DNA of 61,510 bases, filler included. It is 14 parts of 14 records of this genome, joined end to end, with 100 filler letters (N's around TTAATTAATTAA, not from the genome) between each part and the next. Parts side by side here need not be neighbours in the genome. Positions count along the whole stretch, not along the records: positions 50,984 to 55,577 come from SRR7504441_84342; 13 more parts are not named here. One strand, 5' to 3'. A program made the position numbers and the translations under genes. Below the pieces are notes generated by a model, which did not search any database, was not told where the DNA came from, and saw only the letters and a list, made by a program, of their open reading frames with translations. Position 1 is the stretch's first letter, and each line of letters begins with the position of its first letter. Of the stretch, positions 19,730-61,510 are shown piece by piece.

Positions 19730-20038
19730 GGACCTGGCTGATGCTGTTCTGACTGTACTGCTGCGATCACTCGAGTGCGCGTGGGACGTAGGGTAGGCTG
19801 TCGGGGCCTTTCGTGCACGAGAGTATCTCCGGCAACTTTTTCAATTTTATCGTATTGAAAAAGTAGATGTGCATGTATCGATACAGTGCATCAATAGATC
19901 AATAGTACAATTGAAATGTGATTTGACCCGTGTAAGCGNNNNNNNNNNNNNNNNNNNNNNNNNNNNNNNNNNNNNNNNNNNNTTAATTAATTAANNNNNN
20001 NNNNNNNNNNNNNNNNNNNNNNNNNNNNNNNNNNNNNN

Positions 20039-23000
20039 GCATGTAGCCAAAGGCCAAATTCGGACCCAGCACCAGGGAGATGATATCTCACTTCCCAATC
20101 TTGTCCCTAGTATTACAGTTTCGTTGGTTATCCACCATTGAAAATATTGCTGCTCGAACCTGACACAGTTGCTTTTCTCAAGTTCTTTGTGGTGCGGTTC
20201 TGTCCTTGACAGCACGATGGCATGCGCATTTGTTCCAGAAAACCCGAACGAGTTTATGCCTTTCGATTGGACAGGACTCTCGCTTGTTTGCTGTGTCTTC
20301 AAGAGCGTTGCAAAATTCTGGAGTGGAAGGTGCTCGTTTGGTCGTTTCAGGCTTAAGTTGGGAGGAGAAAGCCGCTTTTCCAATCCGAGCACTGCTACAA
20401 CTAATGAAGCGCACCCAGTGAAGTACTCGGCATGTCCCAGGTGGGTTTTAAGAGCCCCAATGCTAACTGGCGTATGCAGATGCCCATTTCCAAGCGCAGA
20501 ATGGAGTGCATCGATCTCGATTGGGTCGCCGAGTGGAGTGCCCGTTCCATGAGCCTCGATAGAGTGACGCAAATGATCGATCCTTGCCTGTTGCAAGGCC
20601 TTGACCAGCATCGCACGCTGAGCTGTTCCATTCGGTGCTGAAAAACTGGCGCTGCGGCCATCTTGATTAACGCAGGTAGACCTGATTACAGGCAAGTCTA
20701 GTTGTATCGACTCCAATACTACAGCAAAACAACCTTCCCCAAGACCAAAGCCATCTGCGGCTGCATCAAATGTCTTGCACTGGCCATTGAATGCGAGTGG
20801 GAGTGTAATTGAGCCCATCCATGCAGAAGCATGAACTGATAAAGAGACACCCGCAACAAGTGCAGTTTGACAGCTCCTTCTGTGCAAAGATGCCCTCGCG
20901 GTGTCCAATGCCACCAATGATGCCGAACACGCAGTGTCCACTACTAGGCACGGTCCCCTGAGCCCTAAAATGTAGGATATTCGACCTGCCGCTGCAGCCG
21001 GGGAAGCCCCAGCTGCAGTAAACACGGACTCGGCGAGGTTTTCCAGCACGCGAGACCACAAAGTCTGGCCAAAGCCTATAAACACACCAATGCCTTGCTC
21101 GAATAGCGTGGATTTCTGATGGCCAGCGCGCGAGAAGGCACCAAAAGCAACTTCGAGAAGCAGCCGATGATTAGGATCAGTCACGCTTGCTTCAATGGGG
21201 CTAAGACCAAAGAATTCCTGGTCGAAAACTTCAGCACGGTCAACAATGTGTCCACGATATACCAGTGGTTGGATTGAAGCCTTCGTCTCAACTGACTGCG
21301 AGTCGCATCGCGAGAGAGGTGGAATGCTTGTCGAGTCGTGTGCAGAGGATATCGCTGCCCAGAGGAGCTGGGTGTCAGAGCACCCATCTGGTGCTCGACA
21401 GGAGACACCTCTGCACTTCGGTAATAAGGTCGAGTCGTCCAAACACAGATCGTCATTGGCCAAGTGAAGAGCTGCCAGCGGGTCTCGATTTTGTCTGCTG
21501 CTCGCATAAAGAGCGATCGCCCGGACTGTCGGATAGCTGAAGACCAAAGTCGCCGGTAATCGCGTAGTCTGGTCCAAAATAACATCTAATGATCTTGCAA
21601 GCTCCACAGCCTGGCTTGACTTGAGCCCTGCTTCTAAGAGTGGCTGAGTGGCCACAATTGCTCGGCCCAGGACTTGACTGACATGTGCAAGGACTCTCAG
21701 CTCAACGCTCTGTTCAAATTTGCTCGCAGAGGGCTTCCCAACAAAAGAGCACGTGTTGAGTAGAGGCTCCTGGCTGCCTCTTGAATTCTGCAGGCTTATT
21801 TGTTCGTGGTGACCATGATCCAGGGGCACTGTTCGAGCAACCTTTGAGTGGCTGTTTGTCCCCGATACCTGATCTGCTGCTGCTGAACCTCTGGCCTGAT
21901 TTCTGCAGCTGGACTGCGCTCTTGTATCTCTCTGATTTATGGCCTGGTTGTATTCAAGAGCAAGGTGTACGTTGAACCCACTTCCAGATGTCCCGCTTAT
22001 CCCGATTGAGAGGATTTCTCCTTCCAGGCGAATGCTTGTATGAGATATTGGAAGGCAAATACTCTGCTGGGAATTTCTGAGCCTACTACAGAGGGTGTCG
22101 ATCCCAACTGCACCGGGAACAGCCTGATGGTGGAGTGCAAGAGTGCACACAATGGCTGCAATGACACCAGCAGCAGACATCGAATGCCCAATGTGCCCTT
22201 TGTGTGAGATTAAAACGAGTGGGCTCGATGCTGAGCGGGTGGCAGCCATCGGCATCACAACTCCATCTATTTCAGGGAGGTCCGAAGCTGGATTACCCAT
22301 GGCATGTAGGTGAACGGCTGCTTCTTGATCAAGTTTCCTCGTGGCTTTCTGGGTCACAGTCTCCATAGCATCTGGATCAGCAAAGCCTAGTGGGCACTGT
22401 GTACCATTCTGGTTGGTGGCGTGGCCTGTAAATGCAGCTAGAGAGCGTAGCTGCGAGGTGGTTCTGTGAAGAATCAAAGAACCATAGGCTTCACCGGGCA
22501 TTGTTCCATCGGCACTCTCGTCTAGTGGCTTCAAACGGCCAGAAGGCGAGAGAATGCCAGCTTTATGAAGTTTTATGAGCTCGGCTGTATGGAGCATCAG
22601 ATAAACGGCGCCAATGACCGCAAATTTGCAGCTGCCCTCCTCGATTGCGCGGATTCCTTCATCTGTTGCCAGGTACCCCGCCGAGCAGGCAGCTGTCACG
22701 TTGGCATGTGGACCGTTGATCTGAAGGGTGGATGCAACAACATGACTTATATGGAATGATCTGGTGGGCACCAAGAAGTCCAGAGGGTCAGCTCCGGTAA
22801 AAAGCCCAACCTTTTGATCCAATGCAGACAGCGTGAGATCAGCATCTTCTTCAGCTGCACGTATGATTTCCACTAAGCAGTGCACATGCATGTCGGTGTA
22901 AGGAGGTATTTGTCGGATTGCAGGTTTAGTGGCGTCATGAAGTTGGACAAACGCACCGCTGTAGATAGTGCTAGCGACGGCTGCTTGCTTGCAGGCATCC

Positions 23001-23631
23001 ACCCAGCGGGTCGGCGATGAAGAGGTGATGCAACATCTGCCCGAAATAAGCACGTCCCAAAGATGTGCAGGGTCATGAACGCCGCCGCTCGTGTGGCATG
23101 CAAACCCGCTTACACCAACACCAGATTTTTTTTCCGTTAGGTTGTGAGGCACCATTGTGAGTTCCATTACAGTGGATTTCACGACGAGACAATCGTCAAT
23201 GTATTGCGCAAGCAAAGATGCTGTAGGATGCTCGAAGAGGATTGCGCTCGGGAGTTCAACATTGATTTCCTGCTGCAGCAAATTTCGAAACTCGATTGCG
23301 GACAAAGAATCTAATCCAGAGTCTTGGAGAGAATCGTCTGCGGAAACAATTGTCCCAGTAATTGCCTTGACCTTCAAAATGATTGTGTCCAGTACCTGAC
23401 TGAGTGTCTGCAAGGCCGAATGACAAGAATGCGAATCAGACTTTACATAGGGTTTGGCCTTTGTTTGCTGCCAGCCTATATTAAGCTGCCGTAGACCAAA
23501 CTGGGGTGTACTCCAAATGGACATGCTCTGCAAGGCAGCCATTGCTCGAAGGACACAACAAACAGAGGGGACAGTTTCCTTCAACAAAGATGTGGGCGTT
23601 TGCACTGTATACAACTCAGCCCAAGCCCCCC
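20039..23631 (-). CDS. Modular type I polyketide synthase fragment: ACP-KS-ACP-KS, no AT domain, open at both ends
   Basis: ACP GLDSLSAIEFRN. KS1 TAACSAG / HLHAMG / KGHIGH. ACP EAGLKSSQAVEL. KS2 DTACSASL / EAHGTGT / KTHLGH / NSFGFSGTNAH. Confidence 0.93.
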
Positions 23632-23766
23632 NNNNNNNNNNNNNNNNNNNNNNNNNNNNNNNNNNNNNNNNNNNNTTAATTAATTAANNNNNNNNNNNNN
23701 NNNNNNNNNNNNNNNNNNNNNNNNNNNNNNNCCTTCGCTGGGCAGCCCACTGACCAAGGGGACAGG

Positions 23767-50677: not shown

Positions 50678-51516
50678 CATGCATGCCGCTCTAGATTAGA
50701 CTCAGTTCTCCAAATAGGGTGGCTTATCACAATCATGTAGGTTACTAGGATTTAAGATCTGTGTCCATGTGAATAAAGAATTACATTTTAGATAACTAGA
50801 TACAGTCAGTATGACGGTATGAATACAGTAATCCCTCGAAAGTTAGATGAGCCGAAAACCGGGGTTTCGGGACCGAGACGCCTNNNNNNNNNNNNNNNNN
50901 NNNNNNNNNNNNNNNNNNNNNNNNNNNTTAATTAATTAANNNNNNNNNNNNNNNNNNNNNNNNNNNNNNNNNNNNNNNNNNNNTATATGTGGCAGCCATC
51001 CTGCTGCTCGAGCTCAGCTCCGACCCGAATCAACTTAGAATCAACTCCGGAGAGCCTCGGATGAGCAAGCGGCGATTCGATCATGACGAAGCGCCAGACC
51101 GATTACTCGTAGTACATAGAAGAAAGCCTTCTGGACACCGGCTGGTCGGGCAGTCAGGCGCTCAAGGGCAAGCAAGACGCGGCTGCCAACCCGTACAAGA
51201 GCAAGACAGCGGAGCAGAAGGCTAGGCGGCGCACTATTGAGCACGTGCACTATTGAGCGTATCATGGCGTATTGAGCACGTGCAGTCGTGCACTGCACTG
51301 ACGACGTGCACTTGCCGTAGGACGAGGCCAAGCGCACCTGAGATTGAGGGCTCCGTCGCAGCGCAGCCAATTGGCGTTTATCGTTATCACTCATCCGTGT
51401 TAACATCCGCTGCCAACCGATACGCCGATAGAATGAGGTCGTAAAGGCCAATTGCTTATCTATACCAGCTTTTAACCAGCTTTGACTGCTGAGATCAAGG
51501 CGTTAATTACTAGCCA

Positions 51517-52731
51517 CTAGGAAACGTCCACAACTATCCACCGGGAGCTGTCGTCCCAATCGTGTTGGAGCTTCTTGTTACACTGGATGGTGAGGTCAAT
51601 GTGCGGCTCGGTGTAGTAGTCGCCACCCCACTCTGCTTTGTATTTGAGTCTCAACACACCAGGGCCTTCCACCTGGCATTTGCTTGTTTCACTCTCCATC
51701 TGTCTATTGTCGAATGCACAGCGGCCGTGCGACATACTTGACTCCTTCGTTAAGCGAAGGCTATATTCGTCTCCTTTCATTAGGCCTGTCGTTTGTGTGC
51801 CATCTAACTCGGCATAGCCCTTAGCGGCCATCCTGTACGTATCCCAATTGGCACCACACAGGGACCAAGTCTTTAGACTGCACACAAAACACCCACTGGG
51901 CAGCGAAATATGCAGATCGCCACCCGCAGAGGCCCGGCCGGCTTCCCGCCACATCTGTTGCAGCTTCAGCGTCAGCGCGATGCTGGTGTCCAGAGTCTCA
52001 GGATCAAGCGACGCTTCAAACAGCTGGTGCGCGTTGCAACCATCTGGAGTTTCGAGGCGGCGACCCCATATATCATCCGCTGCGACCTCACTTTCCTGTC
52101 CACCCCATTTATCCAATAAAAATACCGGCGATTTCACGCAAGCTTGGCCTGGGATAGTGAGCTGTTGCTCAGCATACTCATACACCTGGGGCATTTGCAC
52201 GTCCATTGATGGCGATGGCGCAGCTGGCACAGCCCCCTCCGAGGGCCGCCCCTCATCAAAATCTGCGCCAGCGGGGAGACCAAATACACTAGGATCGTCA
52301 TCGATCTGCACGGCTCTAATCGTCGAATCCGGCAGCAGCCGCGGCCGTGCTCGGCACCGCTGTTCGTAGAGCGCCAAGAATCTGGCGTCGGCCACCTGGA
52401 CCGTGGCCCCGTCGCACACCCCCGTCTCGGTCCACCGGGTGCGTCTGTCTAGAGCTTGGTCAGAGAAGCCGAACTCCAGCTCGACCGCCAGCAAGTCGGC
52501 TATCGGCTCGACCAGCTCCAGGCTGGCTGCCACGATCAGATCGCGGGCGAGCCCCCGCTGGAGGACGTCCACGGGCTCGCTCAGCTGGACCGAGGCCGGG
52601 CGGGTGCCGCCCGACTCGAGCTGCAGCAGCAGGTGGACCGGCGGCGGGGCTTGCTCGCAGGCCACCCGCTCGAGGTCCTGGCTCAGCCGTGCCTGGTGGC
52701 TCTCCTCCTGGCCCGAGCTGCACGCTCCCAT
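51517..52731 (-). CDS. Hypothetical 404-aa protein with an N-myristoylation-like start and a ubiquitin-like segment
   Basis: MGACSS start. VHLLLQLESG..ELEFGFSDQAL..TGVCDGATVQV resembles a UBL fold. Confidence 0.6.
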   Translation of the reverse strand: MGACSSGQEESHQARLSQDLERVACEQAPPPVHLLLQLESGGTRPASVQLSEPVDVLQRGLARDLIVAASLELVEPIADLLAVELEFGFSDQALDRRTRWTETGVCDGATVQVADARFLALYEQRCRARPRLLPDSTIRAVQIDDDPSVFGLPAGADFDEGRPSEGAVPAAPSPSMDVQMPQVYEYAEQQLTIPGQACVKSPVFLLDKWGGQESEVAADDIWGRRLETPDGCNAHQLFEASLDPETLDTSIALTLKLQQMWREAGRASAGGDLHISLPSGCFVCSLKTWSLCGANWDTYRMAAKGYAELDGTQTTGLMKGDEYSLRLTKESSMSHGRCAFDNRQMESETSKCQVEGPGVLRLKYKAEWGGDYYTEPHIDLTIQCNKKLQHDWDDSSRWIVVDVS

Positions 52732-52776
52732 TCCGTTGTTGGCGTTTCAGTTATCTCGGCGGGCAGACACGTCGGC

Positions 52777-53705
52777 ATGATGCTCCGTGGTCTCTGGGCA
52801 GGAGGGCGAGCCGCCGCGGCGGCACTGGCGTACCATGCGGTGCCGGGCAGCGTACAGCTGTCCAGCGTGAGCGGGCTCAGCTGGCAGCAACGCGCGCAGG
52901 TCATGGAGCACGAGAGGCTAGATTTCGGGCTGCCAGCGGTCTCTAAGGCCAGGCACCCGGGAGTAGTCGGGGCCAAGCACTGCCGGCCGCACGAGACCTC
53001 GGTGGTGCGCATAGTGCTCACAGGCGGGCCGTGCGCCGGGAAGAGCTCAGCGCTGCGCAAGCTGACTGCGGCGGCCAACAGCAACGGATTCGACGTGTAC
53101 CTGGCCCCTGAGTGCGCCACGATTCTGTTCAGCAATGGGTGCAGCGCGGCCGACTTTGGGGTGCCGGGGTACTCCGAGGCGTACAACAAGAGCATCACCC
53201 AGCTTCAGCTCCAGATGGAGCGAAGTTTCACCAGAATCGCCGCCTCGACCGGCCGGCCTAGTATCCTTGTGTGTGATAGGGGGATAATGGACAACAAGGG
53301 CTACATCGCGGCAGACGGTTGGGACCAGACCCTGCAGTTTGTGGACGGCGAGGACGCCAAGGCCAGCGTGACAGAGGACTACGTTCTGGCGAGATACGAT
53401 CTCGTGATTCACATGGACACAGCAGCCAAGGGAGCCGAGAAGTATTACAAATGGGGCGAGACCACCGATGACAACGGACACACCGTGATCCGGTCGGAGT
53501 CGCCCGAGGTGGCCAGGCAGCTGGACGACAAGATGCTCGCCTGCTGGGAGCATCACCCTAACCACGTCCGCGTGAGGAATAGCGAGGCCGGGTTCCATGT
53601 GAGGGCCCCTGGCATCCGGCTGACGATGAGCTTGGGGTGCAGGTCAAGCTGGAGCAAGTGAGCGAAGCCGTGCTCAAAGCGGCCAGGGTCAAACACCCCC
53701 AATAG
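52777..53705 (+). CDS. NadR/Ttd14-like AAA_28 P-loop protein
   Basis: RIVLTGGPCAGKSS, PECATILF, LQLQME, ILVCDRGIMD, RYDLVIHM.TAA.GAE.YY, R.ESPE.AR.LD..W..HPN. One 3' intron. Confidence 0.85.
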
Positions 53706-53958
53706 ACCTCTTACTAGTGTAGACTGACCCGTAGCAATAGACCGGCACAAGCGAGCCGAAGTAGTTGTAAGCACTCTAGGTCACAACTGAATGATTGAGT
53801 ATGCATGTGGGGGCGCATCTCGTCTTTATTGAGATATTACTCCAGTAACAAGTAGAAGCAAACTGCTTGCGACATGTTTCTCGAGCTACATGATTACAAG
53901 TATACACTAGTCATGAGCCGTACGCCCGTAAACATGGCTCTCACGGCATGGAACTGCC

Positions 53959-54749
53959 TCAGATGGAGCTCAGATCGAGAACTTCGTCCTCACCGTCGCT
54001 CTCGAGCCCGAATTCGATCAGCCCGTCGTCCTGCTCCTCCTGGCCCAGTTGGTCGCCCAACTTCAAACCCTTAGGCAGCTCGTCGTACCCCTTGAGCCTC
54101 AGCACCTCGTCGCCCTGGTAAAGATGCAGCACGTCGCACTTGTCATCCTGGAAGTCGCGCAGGCCCACCAGCACAACGTCCCCGGTCCGCACTCTGTTAG
54201 CCGCCCCGCGCCGCATGCTGCCTCGGATAATTCCTACTCTCGTTGCCCCGTCTTGGCACTCAATCCGGCATCGCCGGTTCCCCAGCATTTGCAGCACCAG
54301 CCCGTACTCTTGGCCCTCGTCCCGGAAGAGCAGCTCGCGCCGGACCGCACCAGCGCCGGCGTTCCGAGTGCCCTTAGGCCGAGCCTTGCCTTTCCCGCCC
54401 GCCAGCCGCAGGGTTAGCACCACAGGCTGCCCATCGGGCTGACAGGCCGACCAGTCAGCCAGCAACCGGCCGTGCTGCCAGAGCAGCTGCTCGCCTGCTG
54501 GAACCCCGAGCGCCGCGTGGATGGCTCGCTTCACGTCTTTTGCTCGGGCTCCGGCCACCGCTAGCGATATCAGACCGGCCGGGGTGCGCACAGGGACAGT
54601 GAAGGTGTTGTTGTTCTCATTGTTCGTGTTGTTGTTTGTTGTTGAAGTGGGTAGTGTGTTCGCCCCCTCGGCCGTGATGGCCTCGGCGCTGGCGTTACCC
54701 TACACCAGCTGGGCTAGCTACGGGCCGGCCCCGCAGCAGGCCGGGCCAT
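53959..54749 (-). CDS. Ubiquitin-like domain fused to a divergent eIF1A
   Basis: VKRAIHAALGVPAGEQLL..GRLL..LTLRLAGG, then KGK..RRELLFRDEGQEYG..MLGN.R..DG.TR..IRG.MR..GDVVLVGLRDFQDDKCDV..Y..DE..LK..ELP and an acidic tail. The start is inferred as ATG 54749 plus a 47-nt GC-AG intron (54700-54746). Confidence 0.85.
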
Positions 54750-55283
54750 GATTCCGCATGACCCCTTGCGATTGCTTTGCTCGCGACCGCGGCCAGTGTC
54801 TGCTGTGCAGAGTAGCCGGCAGCCCTTCTGGCCCAGTATCGCCGGGCCAGCACCCGCGGGACAACCATGTTCTCCAATCTGGCCGACCAAGTCGGTTCGG
54901 AACCGTGAACCGTCTTCTGAGATCCACACTGACAGGTTCGGTGGAATACGGAGATCTACACCGATTACAACGAATAATCCGGGACCCTAGATCAGGCTTC
55001 AACAAAAGGACAAGGTTGGTGTACCGGTATCGTTCAAAATCAACTTACGATGAAGAGCAGAGCTCTGAATGGTATACGATAAAAAGCTTTTATAATTGAT
55101 TTGGTACACGTTCACAAAAGTACTACAAAAGTACGACGGATCCACACAGTTGCGAAATAACCAACAGATCCGTCTCGAGCAAGTCCACTACTAGTAGCCA
55201 CGGGCATACCGCACACCGTCCCATACGCCAGCCACAGCCTCAGCAGCCTCACGACTCGAGTCTCACGAAGCCGCTCACGCTCA

Positions 55284-55577
55284 CTAATCATCTCGCTTCC
55301 TCTTCTTCCCGCCTTCGTCTTCCTTCTCAATCAAACGGATCAGAGTGTCCACTCGCCGGCCGAGCTCTGCAGGCGTGCGCGACTTGATAAACCAGTCGAA
55401 CCGGAACTGCCAGGCACCTCGGATCTCGGCCTTAAGATCCTCCCAGTTGCCGTATCCGAGCTTCTGGGTCATGCAGATCATGTACCGGTCCTCTTCCTCA
55501 TTGAACGCTTTGCCCTTGTTCTGGCCGTAGCTGATCTTGAGCTGGTTGAACGCGTCCTTGGTCTGGGTCACCTTGTC
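55284..55577 (-). CDS. ISWI: ISWI/SNF2H chromatin remodeller, C-terminal SLIDE domain
   Basis: LKISYGQNKGKAFNEEEDRY..YGNWEDLKAEIR..FRFDWFIKSRTPAELGRRVDTLIRLIEKE. Confidence 0.93.
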   Translation of the reverse strand, partial: DKVTQTKDAFNQLKISYGQNKGKAFNEEEDRYMICMTQKLGYGNWEDLKAEIRGAWQFRFDWFIKSRTPAELGRRVDTLIRLIEKEDEGGKKRKRDD

Positions 55578-57238: not shown

Positions 57239-60200
57239 TCAAAGATCCAGCTGCGTGGCAACAAAGTTTTTATAAAACCAGTCGCAAAATACTTCAAAGG
57301 TCCATTCTTCACCCCCAGATACCTTTGCCAGAGCTGGCTCTAAAATCTGTGAAACATACAAGCTTAGGTCATCGCACATCAGGCACGTGACACCTCGTCA
57401 ATTAGCGAGAGTGACATTCGTACATCTAGTGCCTTGATAACATTGATTGTCAGATATTGGAGCTCGTCCCCATCATTCAATGTGCCTGACTTATCAAGGT
57501 CGTACCTAACACCAGAGCTAGTTAAAGAACTGCATCTAGATGCCAAAATATCACCTGTTGAAGTAAGTGCGCAGGGTCTGGTTGCTCTTTGCAAGCCACT
57601 CGTCGAACGGAGAAGAACCCGTGTTGTCCTCACTTACTTTCAAATCTCCAATCAACGGCTCTGCAGCCACAATCCCGTCTGCTGTCTCAAGCAACCGATC
57701 GGCGCTAGTTGGTGATTCATGGCTTGCTGAGTCTGAAGCGCTGTCCAGATCTTCTTTGTCGCCCTTGCTCCCATTGACAAGGGCATTATCTTCCTTGTGT
57801 AGCCCATTTGACTTGAACTCAAGAGGCAACTGCTCTCCTGGATCTGGCAGGACGACTCTCAAACCATCATCAGAGATGCTCTCTGCAGTGTACCCTGGGA
57901 GCAAGGGCCGGAACGGATCTCTGTACTCATTGCAGACATACAAATCGTGCTCCTGCAGCCCCATTGGGCCTTGAATTAGGAGATAAATCAATGATAAGTA
58001 TTCGACGCCCTCCAGAGTGCACTGACCATCCTTCTTAGTAAGCAGCAGCGTGGTATCAGTCTGGTTCCACCTCTCAAAGTCCTCGGTGAATACATCAGTG
58101 TTGTCTCCATTCCATACATCCTCCCCGTTGTCCTCGATTCTTTTGAATATTTCCCTTGACTCTTCAACAAGGGCAAGCCGCTCCTTGAGCTTTTCAAAGT
58201 TGGCGCGGCATTCAGTCTCCTGCTCATCTGTATCGGTCCCATTAGGGCCAGTTCCAAAGGAGCTGTAGTCGACATAGAATGGCTCGTCTTTCTGATTGAC
58301 CTCGCCAGTTAGGAACAGATTTGGAATGTTCTTCTGGGTTATTGCCAACAGGCACTGGAGGTCGTCAACGGGCATCGATGCATCGCCATCAATATCAAAC
58401 CTATCCCAGATAGACTTAAAGTGCCTCAAATGCTGAGCCGAGATGTTGAGCGACCCAGTGATCTCAGAGGGCTCCAAGGAGTAGCACCAGGTGAACGCGT
58501 TCAGGATAATAGCAACCACCAGGTTCAGCACTGCAAACGCAGTCACCGTCATGAAGAGCAAGAAGAACAGGACTGCTTTTACGTTATCACCACAATCATT
58601 GACATCATCAGTCAAGTCTGGCTGCGCATCCTTCTCTAGAATAGTACAATCAGGGATCATCACCATCATATCGTACATTGTCGAGCGCCAGTTGCCGAGT
58701 GCATTTCGCCACAGCACGTGGAATGAGTCAAGAAAGGTGGTAAAGTTTGAAATAAGGCTGACAGATGTACCATACCTTGTCTTCCCAAAGAGCTCCACGC
58801 CAATCACTGCAAAGATGAAGAATACCAGGAACAAGACCATAAACACATTACTAATTGCTGGAATGGTCCTGAATAAGGTCATCATCAGAGCACGGATTTG
58901 CGGCGCACGCTTGACGAGCCTGAAGATCCGGCAAACCCGAAGCAACCCTGCAAATGCACCCCCTTCCAGAGGGATAAAAATGATTGATGCAATCACCACA
59001 ATTCCATCAAATGCATTCAGTGGGTCACTCCAGTATCCTTTGAAGCCGAGCCCAAGATGCTTGATGGTCATTTCAATAGTAAAAATGACTGTGAAAAATA
59101 TATTCTGCACATATTGAATAGTGTCCCACGCAGTCCCCTGATTGTGGTGATACGTGCACATGAACAAGATGTTGATCATGATACAGAGAGTGATCACATT
59201 GTCGAAAACCATTCCAGACTGATACACCCATCCCTCTGGCACTTGTTGAAGGGACAGTGATTCCCATGTGAACTCATTAAACACCTCCAGATCAGCTTCC
59301 TTCCTGGCCAGGTCTGAATACATTGTTTGCAGCGCCTGGTCAATTGTTTTTAGTGTAAAATCATCATCAGTGATCGCCCGCTGCTTGAGAGTTTGCTCAA
59401 TGTTGCGCCGCAGACGTGGAATTGTCAACACATCACCCACATTTGGGATTTTATTCTTCTCCAGGTAGCTCTCAAGACCAGGCATTGGCAGAGGTCGGAC
59501 ATCTGTAAATATGAGATAGCAAGTTGAGCGAATATTGTCTGGCACGTATTCACCATCTGCAGAAGGACATGGAGGCTTGGGCTCCGGAATCAGCATTCTG
59601 TTGAACTTCATGCAATCAGCCAACATAAGTTGGTCTCCAGTCAGCAATCCAGAACCCTCCGTCACTACAAATTTGTCAATTATCACTGCAACGAATAGTT
59701 GAATCATGAAAAGCTGACCCATGAACACAAAAATCACAATGTAGATACCCCAGTAGGGTGCTCCGTCACAGGATGGAGCTTCATGCGGTTTCTCTGGCAC
59801 GTCATTTGTGGACCAGAGCATAGTCTCCCAGGAGTCACCCGTGGATATTTCAAAAAGGGTCATGTAGGCAGCTGCAATGTTGTCAAAGGAGTATGTGCCG
59901 TATGTGAGTGGCTGCCAAAAGATGGCAGGGTTGTTCCAAAGCATTGGCACGAGGTAACCTGTTGTGTCGGGCTCTTCGGAATCGTTATTGATCCTGTACA
60001 CACCAAAGCAATCTTCTTGGCCGACAAATGTATCACAGTAGGTTCCTACGCACTTATTGCAGGACCAGAATTTACCCTTGAGCATGGAGACACCAAGAAT
60101 GGCAAAGATCAACCACACGGCCACAAGAAGAATGCACACATTTCCAAGAGGTGGGACTGAAGCCATGAGTGATTCCATCACCAGCTTCATACCTTTGACA

Positions 60201-61510
60201 CGGTTTACCATCCTGAGTGGTCTGAATGCCCTGCAGAGTCGAAGGAGTTTGAGAGGTCCCTCTGCAAGTCCCAACAGTCCTATGTACCCAACAACAAGAA
60301 CAATGATATCCAGGTAGTTCCATGCATCATACATGTAAGATTGACGCCCAGTATCACCGAGACAGAGTCGCTTGACGTTATCAGGGCTTCTCAGCATCAG
60401 CTGTACATTGTCTGTGTGCATAAAGCCATGTGCAATAATCTTGAGTAAGCACTCAAAAGTAAAGATGATGACAAAGATGATGTCGTTCATTTCGAAAAAG
60501 TCCACCCATCCGGGAATATCACGAGTAGAGGGGCTGTCGAGTGCCAGCAATACTGTTGAGTAGATGATGATCAGGAGAATGAACGTGTCAAACGTCCAGT
60601 GCTCCACAACGGCAATCACAGGGCGGCGGAACCAATGGTCAGGTTTCATGACCCAGAATGTCACGTTGGTGACAGGGTATCCAAAGCGCACCAAGTCCTC
60701 TGTCACATATGATTGTTCAAAGGTCTCCGTTGCACAATCAAGGGCCATGACCTGCGCCAGACTGGTCACGTCACCTTCGCAGCCAGTGGACTCCCACTCC
60801 TTTTCACAATAATTAATAAACAGCTGTGCTTCCCGAGCCCGAAGCTGCTTCTTGTCCATATCATTGCGCATTTGAGTGGTGAATTCAAGCCGGTCCTCGT
60901 CCTCAAATGAAGACATGTTGGCAAGAATTGCACCAATAAACAGATTGAGGATAATGTAATTGGAAATGATGAAGAAGGACAGAATAATGATTGCTGCTGT
61001 TGTGTTGCGATAGGCAGGTGCTCCACAAGCATTGATACAGTCGAACAGCACCAGCTCCCATGCAGAACCTGTGAGGACTTGAAAGAGTGTGTAAAAGGCT
61101 GTTCCAAAATTGTCGAAATTGGCACGCGGCTTATTATCACACAGGACTAAGTTAGGATCGCTGTCAGGAGTATCGACAAACCTATCAAACTTGTTCCCGT
61201 AGAGTTGCATACACAGGCAGGCATAGACAATTATCACAACCATCATAAAGGTGAAGATATTAATGATGGACGTCAGAGACCCGACAGCAGCGTCAACGAT
61301 CTCCCTCACAGAGTCCACACGGCGCAGCACACGCACGACTCTCAATGCACGGAAAATACGGAGAACCTTCACCAGAGCAAAGTCGATATCAGCTGCATCA
61401 AAGACAATATTGACAATGGATGCCATGACGATACAGAAATCAAATCTGTTGGATCCAACGCGCCAGTAATTGCAGAATCCTTTCATACAAAAAAATTTGG
61501 TGAGCATCTC
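57239..61510 (-). CDS. Four-domain voltage-gated Ca/Na channel, domains II-IV plus C-terminal EF hands, 5' truncated
   Basis: Three S4 segments (LRIFRALRVVRVLRR, LRLCRAFRPLRMVNR, LRVCRIFRLVKR) with pore loops. Spliced last exons YDLDKSGTLNDGDEL..WTFEVFCDWF extend the gene beyond the ORF stop at 57551. Confidence 0.93.

Follow-up and report, generated by a model that had tools for sequence, protein, structure and literature searches.

The window analysed here is a stretch of DNA of 61,510 nucleotides, filler included, in which 14 parts from 14 records of one genome are joined end to end, and the gene in question lies on the minus strand of the part derived from SRR7504441_84342 (positions 50,984 to 55,577). 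It encodes a ubiquitin-like domain ending in Gly-Gly that runs directly into a protein of the eIF1A family of translation initiation factors (Table 1). An open frame of 246 codons runs along the minus strand from 54699 to 53962 and is closed by TGA at 53959-53961, and the residues LTLRLAGG at the end of the first domain are continuous in frame with KGKARPKG at the beginning of the second. A sequence-only reading of this DNA had proposed such an in-frame fusion with a Gly-Gly junction, and had looked to transcripts spanning the junction for its confirmation. The open frame, the retention of the layout in relatives and RNA-library contigs from two studies all bear this out: the junction between Gly-Gly and Lys, at 54393/54394, is bridged, by 70 bases or more to either side, by X1 record 2 (54231-54464) and X3 record 9 (54245-54560), contigs which register presence only and carry no strand, ends or level. 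The fusion of a ubiquitin-like domain to eIF1A through Gly-Gly, in a gene of a cellular genome, is real.

Table 1. Coordinates of the fused gene, its parts and the region upstream, as positions in the window (pLDDT, predicted local distance difference test)
Feature	Position	Strand	Basis or remark
P0001: leader, ubiquitin-like domain, Gly-Gly, basic tail and eIF1A	53962..54699	-	246-codon open frame
Ala-rich, then Asn/Thr-rich low-complexity leader GNASAEAITAEGANTLPTSTTNNNTNNENNNT, codons 1-32	54604..54699	-	without ATG; AlphaFold pLDDT <50
Codons 8-9, ATC ACG, the only other in-frame near-cognate starts before the domain	54673..54678	-	read from sequence
Codon 25, candidate start	54625..54627	-	ACG in window and in X2 and X4 contigs; ATG in X1 strain variant
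Ubiquitin-like beta-grasp domain, codons 33-102, ending LRLAGG	54394..54603	-	models, Foldseek, sequence matches
Gly101-Gly102, presumed deubiquitinase cut site	54394..54399	-	Gly-Gly in 13/13 fused forms
Lys103, residue directly after Gly-Gly	54391-54393	-	
Basic disordered N-terminal tail of eIF1A part KGKARPKGTRNAGAGAV, codons 103-119	54343..54393	-	pLDDT <50, residues 101-119
eIF1A OB fold and helical subdomain, codons 120-205	54085..54342	-	Pfam, yeast alignment, pLDDT 85-92
NRVR loop, codons 168-171, clade-specific, in place of canonical V-W-I-N	54187..54198	-	alignments
Acidic C-terminal tail, codons 206-246, ending DDGLIEFGLESDGEDEVLDLSSI	53962..54084	-	yeast eIF1A alignment
RNA-library contig cover, four runs	53821..54872	-	10-base hole in X1 at 54465-54474, covered by X3 and X4
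Earlier-proposed GC-AG intron, 47 bases	54700..54746	-	in-frame TAG at 54700-54702 and 54718-54720; unspliced in two RNA contigs
Upstream frame MVVPRVLARRYWARR..., 57 codons, out of frame with the gene	54695..54868	-	TAA at 54695-54697 overlaps start of main frame

The two domains of the fused protein

The identity of the C-terminal part is plain. Pfam eIF-1a (PF01176) matches residues 129-192 (54.6 bits, with the cut-off at 30.2; E 8.4e-15), and phmmer aligns residues 107-245 with residues 9-152 of the yeast eIF1A chain 3j80_i (E 9.6e-28), an alignment that takes in OB fold, helical part and acidic tail alike; the PDB matches also include eIF1A from human, Tetrahymena and others. By phmmer, assignment to eIF1A is far beyond chance. 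In the AlphaFold model a helix (196-204) follows the barrel, and the eukaryote-type helical subdomain, the basic N-terminal tail and the acidic C-terminal tail are all present, so that the earlier description of a complete eIF1A with OB fold, helical domain and acidic tail holds. These elements, together with a final Ile in the acidic tail, are common to the window protein and canonical eIF1A (yeast Tif11, human EIF1AX), at ~45% identity.

The two differ most clearly in one loop. Canonical eIF1A reads RKKVWINxGD where the window protein reads RRGAANRVRTGD, with Arg in place of Trp and an insert of two residues; the conserved R-K-K-[VIT]-W-[IV] is lacking and RRGAANRV, with the insert, stands in its place. 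The HMMER alignment sets Arg169 opposite the loop Trp, in agreement with the earlier claim of a divergent eIF1A in which Trp has given way to Arg (NRV). This is a property of the clade: NR[VI]R with the two-residue insert, versus the canonical [VT]W[IV]N, is found in 10/10 printed clade members. We take the rebuilt loop to lie on the face of eIF1A that occupies the 40S A site. The C-terminal tail retains IEFGLES and the terminal Ile, with DLSSI at its end where canonical eIF1A has DIDDI, and DQLGQEEQDD at the positions aligned with DNFGFESDED of yeast eIF1A; tail elements of the DNFGFESDED and DIDDI types are presumably scanning-enhancer and eIF5B-binding elements. Bacterial IF1, in its E. coli sequence, also has Arg at the position of the eIF1A loop Trp, followed by ..TGD, and in both respects the window loop is alike. 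The window protein differs from IF1 in having the eukaryote-specific helical domain and tails, and no bacterial IF1 chain is present among the 22 PDB matches returned by phmmer at E<=0.01. A biogenesis factor of the EIF1AD type was considered and dropped, since the match of the window protein to eIF1A extends over both the helical domain and the tail. A cluster look-up for the window protein, P0001, placed nearest to it eIF1A clusters with giant-virus members (score 0.75-0.76), which is a lead only. For an FMN-dehydrogenase ORF the same kind of look-up yielded bacterial clusters alone, without any hint of taxon.

Because the Pfam ubiquitin model is silent on the window protein, the nature of the N-terminal head had to be judged by other tests of fold. 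The AlphaFold model of the whole protein, built on an 11-row alignment (A1), shows the order beta-beta-alpha-beta...beta over residues 32-99 with pLDDT 54-76, a disordered linker at 101-119 and an OB fold with pLDDT 85-92. A model of the domain alone (codons 25-102, 13-row alignment A3) has a mean pLDDT of 83.3 and a strand and helix order of beta-beta-alpha-beta-beta-beta; its top Foldseek matches in the PDB are ubiquitin chains and NEDD8, with a template modelling (TM) score of ~0.75 and ~30% identity, and 258 matches have E<=0.001. Direct comparison points the same way. A BLASTP alignment with the true ubiquitin contained in the relative P0149 spans 70 columns at 31% identity, in register to LRL (E 0.002), phmmer against PDB chains finds the ubiquitin-like domain of sacsin (E 6.7e-5) and a ubiquitin-like-eS31 fusion chain (E 0.0018), and a profile made from three fused forms retrieves polyubiquitins. 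The head is, by model and by sequence match, a diverged ubiquitin-like domain and not ubiquitin; the fold, which had earlier been no more than an inference, is supported by AlphaFold, Foldseek, BLASTP and phmmer despite the Pfam result.

Relatives and likely recurrence of the fusion

The layout is shared by twelve further clusters in public protein sets. A word-based search with the window protein yielded 27 matches, and a profile search over 1.84 billion representatives yielded 5791 at E<=0.001, of which the best 150 were used. With hidden Markov models built from the stored sequences, 145 of 194 proteins carry eIF1A and 16 carry both domains; removal of three near-copies of P0002 leaves 13 distinct fused proteins, 11 of them among the best 150 of the 5791 matches. 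The closest relative, P0002, is itself fused (67% identity; a protein of 213 residues), and four Logan contigs of 903-1089 bases encode the whole of P0002 and three near-identical cluster members. The fused clade of the window comprises P0001, P0002, P0003, P0047 and P0048, with junctions that read LRLVGGGGKKGKG, PLMGG/AKKKPKG, ALNGG/AKKKPKG and PLVGG/QKKKPKG (the slash marks the end of Gly-Gly). A second fused clade, with an RRAWV loop, contains P0061, P0078, P0110 and P0117; P0107 and P0183 are further fused forms, each a group of its own; and in P0135 and P0149 the head is bona fide ubiquitin (106 bits with Pfam ubiquitin for P0149).

In a tree of the eIF1A part with 90 rows (LG+C20; rows deduplicated at 85% from 148, with P0029-31, P0032, P0060 and rows with a domain match <95 residues omitted), the window clade consists of 8 rows with a Shimodaira-Hasegawa-like approximate likelihood ratio test (SH-aLRT) value of 96: the five fused proteins, P0004, P0005 and P0049, and no viral row. 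The fused label requires 7 changes on a 133-row tree, on which starred branches force 2, and 8 on the 90-row tree, both trees having ~120 columns and many open forks. These changes of state make recurrent fusion likely, as does the distribution of heads, true ubiquitin in one group and domains of 30% identity in others; a single origin is neither shown nor excluded by these alignments. In P0149, residues 1-24 form a leader whose end, ..RGRLLGGSG, directly precedes MQIFVKT; it resembles what decay might leave of an upstream ubiquitin unit, which would fit an origin from a polyubiquitin gene.

The same design occurs in giant viruses. Two near-identical contigs from giant-virus metagenome-assembled genomes in IMG/VR (L013 and L014, 5908-6759) encode a 274-residue ubiquitin-like-eIF1A fusion, MLIKTLGNKTLFL...SLSLNGG/GKG, with a long acidic C-terminal extension. 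Its domain order and Gly-Gly junction are those of the window gene, which, however, lies amid cellular genes. In the 90-row tree the viral protein sits at the end of a long branch, remote from the clade of the window. These two are the only fused loci among 18 eIF1A loci of IMG/VR, the other 16 being unfused, and a loop of the NRVR type occurs in 0/18. A metagenome scan with P0001 gave 80 loci, none with a fused ubiquitin-like domain and none of the NRVR type.

Other architectures and leader features were seen among the relatives. P0060 (459 aa) is a single chain with three eIF1A-like OB domains in tandem. In the otherwise distant P0001, P0061, P0110, P0135 and P0149 the leader ahead of the ubiquitin-like domain has Asn-rich runs, and a motif N-x-[LR]-P-[AT]-x-T is found in 4/8 aligned leaders of N-extended fused forms; the motif was not counted as homology, being too short and too low in complexity, and such leaders may reflect either a low-complexity coincidence or a conserved leader. 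The corresponding codons 1-32 of the window gene may be either coding sequence or 5' leader.

Probable release at the Gly-Gly junction

Several features of the family argue that the product is a precursor that is cut to release its partner. Gly-Gly lies at the exact end of the domain in 13/13 fused forms, with Leu at -4 (LxGG) in 12/13, and in the window protein (LRLAGG/KGK) the partner follows directly upon it, as in known ubiquitin-fusion precursors, with which it also shares an N-terminal beta-grasp domain (pLDDT 83.3 in the model, Foldseek TM ~0.75 to ubiquitin and NEDD8). The linker beyond is disordered. Unfused members of the clade (P0005, P0006 and P0049) begin MPGKKKPKG where fused counterparts read GG/AKKKPKG, and the starts of unfused forms, including MAKKKPKG inside P0032, thus fall at most two residues from the presumed cut. 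A related situation is seen in P0004 and P0032 from EukProt, isoforms i12 and i16 of one Trinity gene, which are identical from AKKKPKG onward and differ exactly at the junction, where P0004 reads ..NLCLCGG/AKKK, the tail of a ubiquitin-like domain, and P0032 reads ..HQTM/AKKK. The pair suggests alternative 5' exons, one giving a fused factor and the other a factor that starts with its own Met; the MCIRDR.. with which P0032 opens is presumably adapter-derived.

Known fusions provide a close model. Ub-eS31 (RPS27A/Ubi3) and Ub-eL40 (UBA52/Ubi1,2) also place an N-terminal ubiquitin fold and Gly-Gly in frame with a small basic protein of the translation machinery, and PMC8354635 describes their ubiquitin part as removed and as a presumed in-cis chaperone of the basic, unstructured partner. 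They differ from the window gene in that the partner is a ribosomal protein, whereas here it is an initiation factor, the head is ~30% identical to ubiquitin and falls below the Pfam threshold, and cleavage is predicted. FUBI-eS30 (FAU) is closer in having a diverged head, Gly-Gly and a 40S-binding partner with an unstructured basic part; the same paper puts FUBI at 36% identity to ubiquitin and reports that Gly-Gly mutants remain uncut (PMC8354635). FUBI-eS30 is holozoan and is processed by USP36, and both lineage and partner differ from those of the window gene.

By analogy with these proteins, and since Gly-Gly closes the fold in every fused form, the linker is disordered and unfused starts lie near the cut, we regard release of an eIF1A-type factor from a precursor as the best reading of the gene and as probably correct; the earlier claim of processing after Gly-Gly was a reasonable one in light of the 13/13 conservation and of relatives that begin within two residues of the presumed cut. 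On this reading an expressed gene of a marine eukaryote would give rise to a precursor composed of a diverged ubiquitin-like domain, Gly-Gly and an eIF1A-type initiation factor, and a deubiquitinase would cut after Gly102, as with Ub-eL40, Ub-eS31 and FUBI-eS30. Cleavage would yield the ubiquitin-like protein in free form and an eIF1A that lacks an initiator Met and has Lys103 as the first residue of its basic tail. The head would most likely assist the synthesis and solubility of a small factor with a basic tail, perhaps as a chaperone, and set its exact N-terminus, and it is probably not permanent. The released factor, in which a rebuilt loop longer by two residues falls on the presumed A-site face, would then probably bind the small subunit in an altered way.

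Several results weigh against this interpretation. Pfam ubiquitin (PF00240) gives no match to the window protein at E<=1, and the closest relatives score 17.7 bits (P0002) and 17.0 bits (P0003) against the gathering cut-off of 25.4 that marks membership in ubiquitin proper, a level which the window protein does not attain. In our reading of the P0149 BLASTP alignment the counterparts of ubiquitin Leu8, Ile44, Lys48 and Val70 are Pro, Trp, Arg and Thr, and with Leu8, Ile44 and Val70 changed, recognition by ordinary ubiquitin-specific enzymes is not assured. DNA carried over into the RNA libraries could account for contigs there. Finally, the first in-frame ATG of the window allele after the TAG at 54700-54702 is that of Met138, within the OB fold; this copy must therefore rely on near-cognate initiation, depend on a splice that went unseen, or be weak or null as an allele.

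The same divergence could be accommodated by a ubiquitin-like domain that stays in place as an N-terminal dock for the proteasome, a ubiquitin-binding protein or the ribosome. A head only ~30% identical to ubiquitin, with the canonical hydrophobic-patch positions changed, would suit such a role, and many eukaryotic proteins have ubiquitin-like domains that are never cleaved. Integral domains of this kind, however, usually lack a terminal Gly-Gly, which here is invariant at the domain end (13/13, with LxGG in 12/13), and orthologous unfused forms start at the cut position; moreover, in 48S structures the N-terminal tail of eIF1A threads into the decoding centre, where a folded domain of 8 kDa would clash. 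We consider a permanent domain quite unlikely. Scarcely different in our estimate, and if anything a shade less probable, is a switch of the Sde2 type, in which cleavage would expose an N-terminal Lys that both activates the factor and marks it for rapid N-degron turnover, making of it a short-lived regulatory eIF1A. Sde2 has a ubiquitin-like domain and a GG-K junction, as does the window protein, and its active C-terminal part is freed by deubiquitinases; it is cut at a conserved GG-K, cannot do without the Lys thus exposed and owes its short life to the N-end rule, according to PMC9508853. The window reads GG/KGK, and P0110 and P0117 read GG/KK. Yet of the 13 fused forms only 3 have K directly after Gly-Gly, whereas 6 have G, 2 have A, and Q and V occur once each, and even within the window's clade this residue varies (K, G or else K after GGGG, A, A, Q), while unfused clade members, beginning MPGKKK, have no N-terminal Lys at all. 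The conserved GG-K of Sde2 is thus wanting in the family, its C-terminal domain is replaced by an unrelated partner, eIF1A, and exposure of Lys is a trait of the window gene rather than of the family; the sequence-only reading, in which an Sde2-like exposed Lys was the point of the design, went too far in this respect.

Setting and start of the gene, and what the design implies

Ordinary cellular neighbours, encoding an ISWI SLIDE domain, an AAA_28 NTPase, a multi-repeat Ion_trans channel and an actin-family protein, and a G+C content of 47-65% along the window indicate a eukaryotic nuclear setting rather than a virus, and the RNA runs that contain the stretch are marine or aquatic metatranscriptomes. 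Standard-code frames run uninterrupted in the window for up to 1345 codons, which suggests an intron-poor genome. Among the long frames, a 1230-codon frame at 19991-23683 (minus strand) reads by eye like a multi-domain type I polyketide synthase, and a 1319-codon frame at 57551-61510 (minus strand), open at the end of the window, includes three Ion_trans stretches. At 55284-55289 (minus strand) a TAG with TGA immediately after it closes the SLIDE-domain (ISWI-type) frame, and RNA contigs of X2 and X3 cover 55233-55443. A dinoflagellate spliced-leader motif had no match at up to 3 mismatches, and Rfam gave none at gathering scores. The gaps that the contigs of the four runs leave at 53600-53785 and 54873-55232 were not used to place transcript ends.

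Three upstream ATGs (54868, 54759 and 54749) open frames of 57, 13 and 11 codons, and an out-of-frame ATG lies at 54620. The 57-codon frame begins MVVPRVLARRYWARRAAGYSAQQTLAAVASKAIARG.., is rich in Arg and Ala and has no acidic residue in its first 38, like an organelle presequence. Codon 25 lies eight codons ahead of strand 1 of the ubiquitin-like domain. Between the X1 strain variant and the window there are 9 differences in 329 bases, and one of these, a plus-strand G>A at 54626, turns codon 25 into ATG; this variant is represented by one contig of depth 4.3. In the alignment the first Met of P0002 stands opposite Val37, within strand 1, a hint that its called start may be too far downstream. 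A search for shorter proteins with residues 1-115 found no match. Translation of TAG as a sense codon, which would carry the frame back to the ATG at 54759, was rejected, because TAG ends the SLIDE-domain frame and standard-code frames extend to 1345 codons.

How translation begins can be explained in several ways, none of which we hold to be likely. The start might be supplied by a spliced 5' exon, yielding Met-Gly-Asn-Ala-Ser-Ala, from the ATG at 54749 through a 47-base GC-AG intron or from the ATG at 54868 through a 166-base GT-AG intron, with a common acceptor AG at 54700-54701. The main frame opens exactly after AG/G, both ATGs directly precede GC or GT, and the third position is G or C in 13/14 of codons 1-14, like the rest of the gene (0.77). 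Against this, X1 record 3 (54475-54803) and X2 record 5 (54604-54872), from two studies, carry the acceptor and 54700-54746 unspliced and collinear, no splice joint was reported in 4/4 RNA runs, the long uninterrupted frames suggest few introns, and 0/9 fused relatives with a complete N-terminus begin Met-Gly. The first exon and 54700-54746 intron proposed earlier are not borne out by these contigs, and the myristoylated MGNASA terminus and membrane tether, which depended on this splice, lack support; since contigs show presence and not absence, a spliced minority form may still exist, but an exon of this kind is unlikely, although less so than the other explanations considered here. A start-codon-less window copy that is poorly or not translated, possibly a young pseudogene whose functional counterpart would be the strain variant that has ATG as its codon 25, would explain the lack of an in-frame ATG before Met138 in a frame closed upstream by a TAG of the kind that also ends the ISWI-type frame, the three upstream ATGs with their short frames and the out-of-frame ATG at 54620, and the existence of the X1 variant. 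The 246-codon frame, however, is intact, two further RNA runs (X2 and X4) carry the same ACG, the ATG variant is a single shallow contig, and the position of the Met in P0002 implies that an odd start may be a trait of a small clade rather than decay; such a copy seems to us very unlikely.

An even bolder proposal would combine the main features of the locus: a clade of marine protists would produce, by way of a ubiquitin-like precursor, a specialised eIF1A whose Arg loop resembles that of IF1, and in the lineage of the window its mRNA would lack a main-frame AUG and be read from a near-cognate codon, either ACG at codon 25 or ATC or ACG at codons 8-9. We give this combination only a slim chance. 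P0002, with its first Met inside strand 1, may use a near-cognate start in the same manner. Since eIF1A is among the factors that set the stringency of start-codon selection, synthesis of eIF1A from such a codon would report on that stringency and feed back on it, like the poor-context AUG of eIF1.

The window gene is best seen as a new partner for the known design of the ubiquitin-fusion precursor, within a distinct eIF1A clade. No paper on a fusion of ubiquitin or a ubiquitin-like domain with eIF1A was found in the literature, part of which was judged by title and abstract, and the main-text section of PMC6332867 that surveys ubiquitin fusions in Bigelowiella and Guillardia names actin, NiSOD, P1/P2, S27, L40 and others as partners, with no eIF1A among them. 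The earlier statement that no such fusion had been described stands as far as papers are concerned, but the layout itself is already present in public protein sets, in 11 of the best 150 representatives.

Ubiquitin-fusion precursors are familiar from textbooks in the case of two or three ribosomal proteins. Their occurrence with an initiation factor broadens the view of ubiquitin-type heads as a general device for producing small, basic, ribosome-binding proteins with a defined N-terminus, and the design recurs across eIF1A lineages, with true ubiquitin, with several diverged heads and in giant viruses. The NR[VI]R clade, for its part, constitutes a natural variant of an otherwise strongly conserved loop of eIF1A. 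If the missing AUG should prove to be real biology, the gene would in addition be a natural sensor of start-codon stringency.

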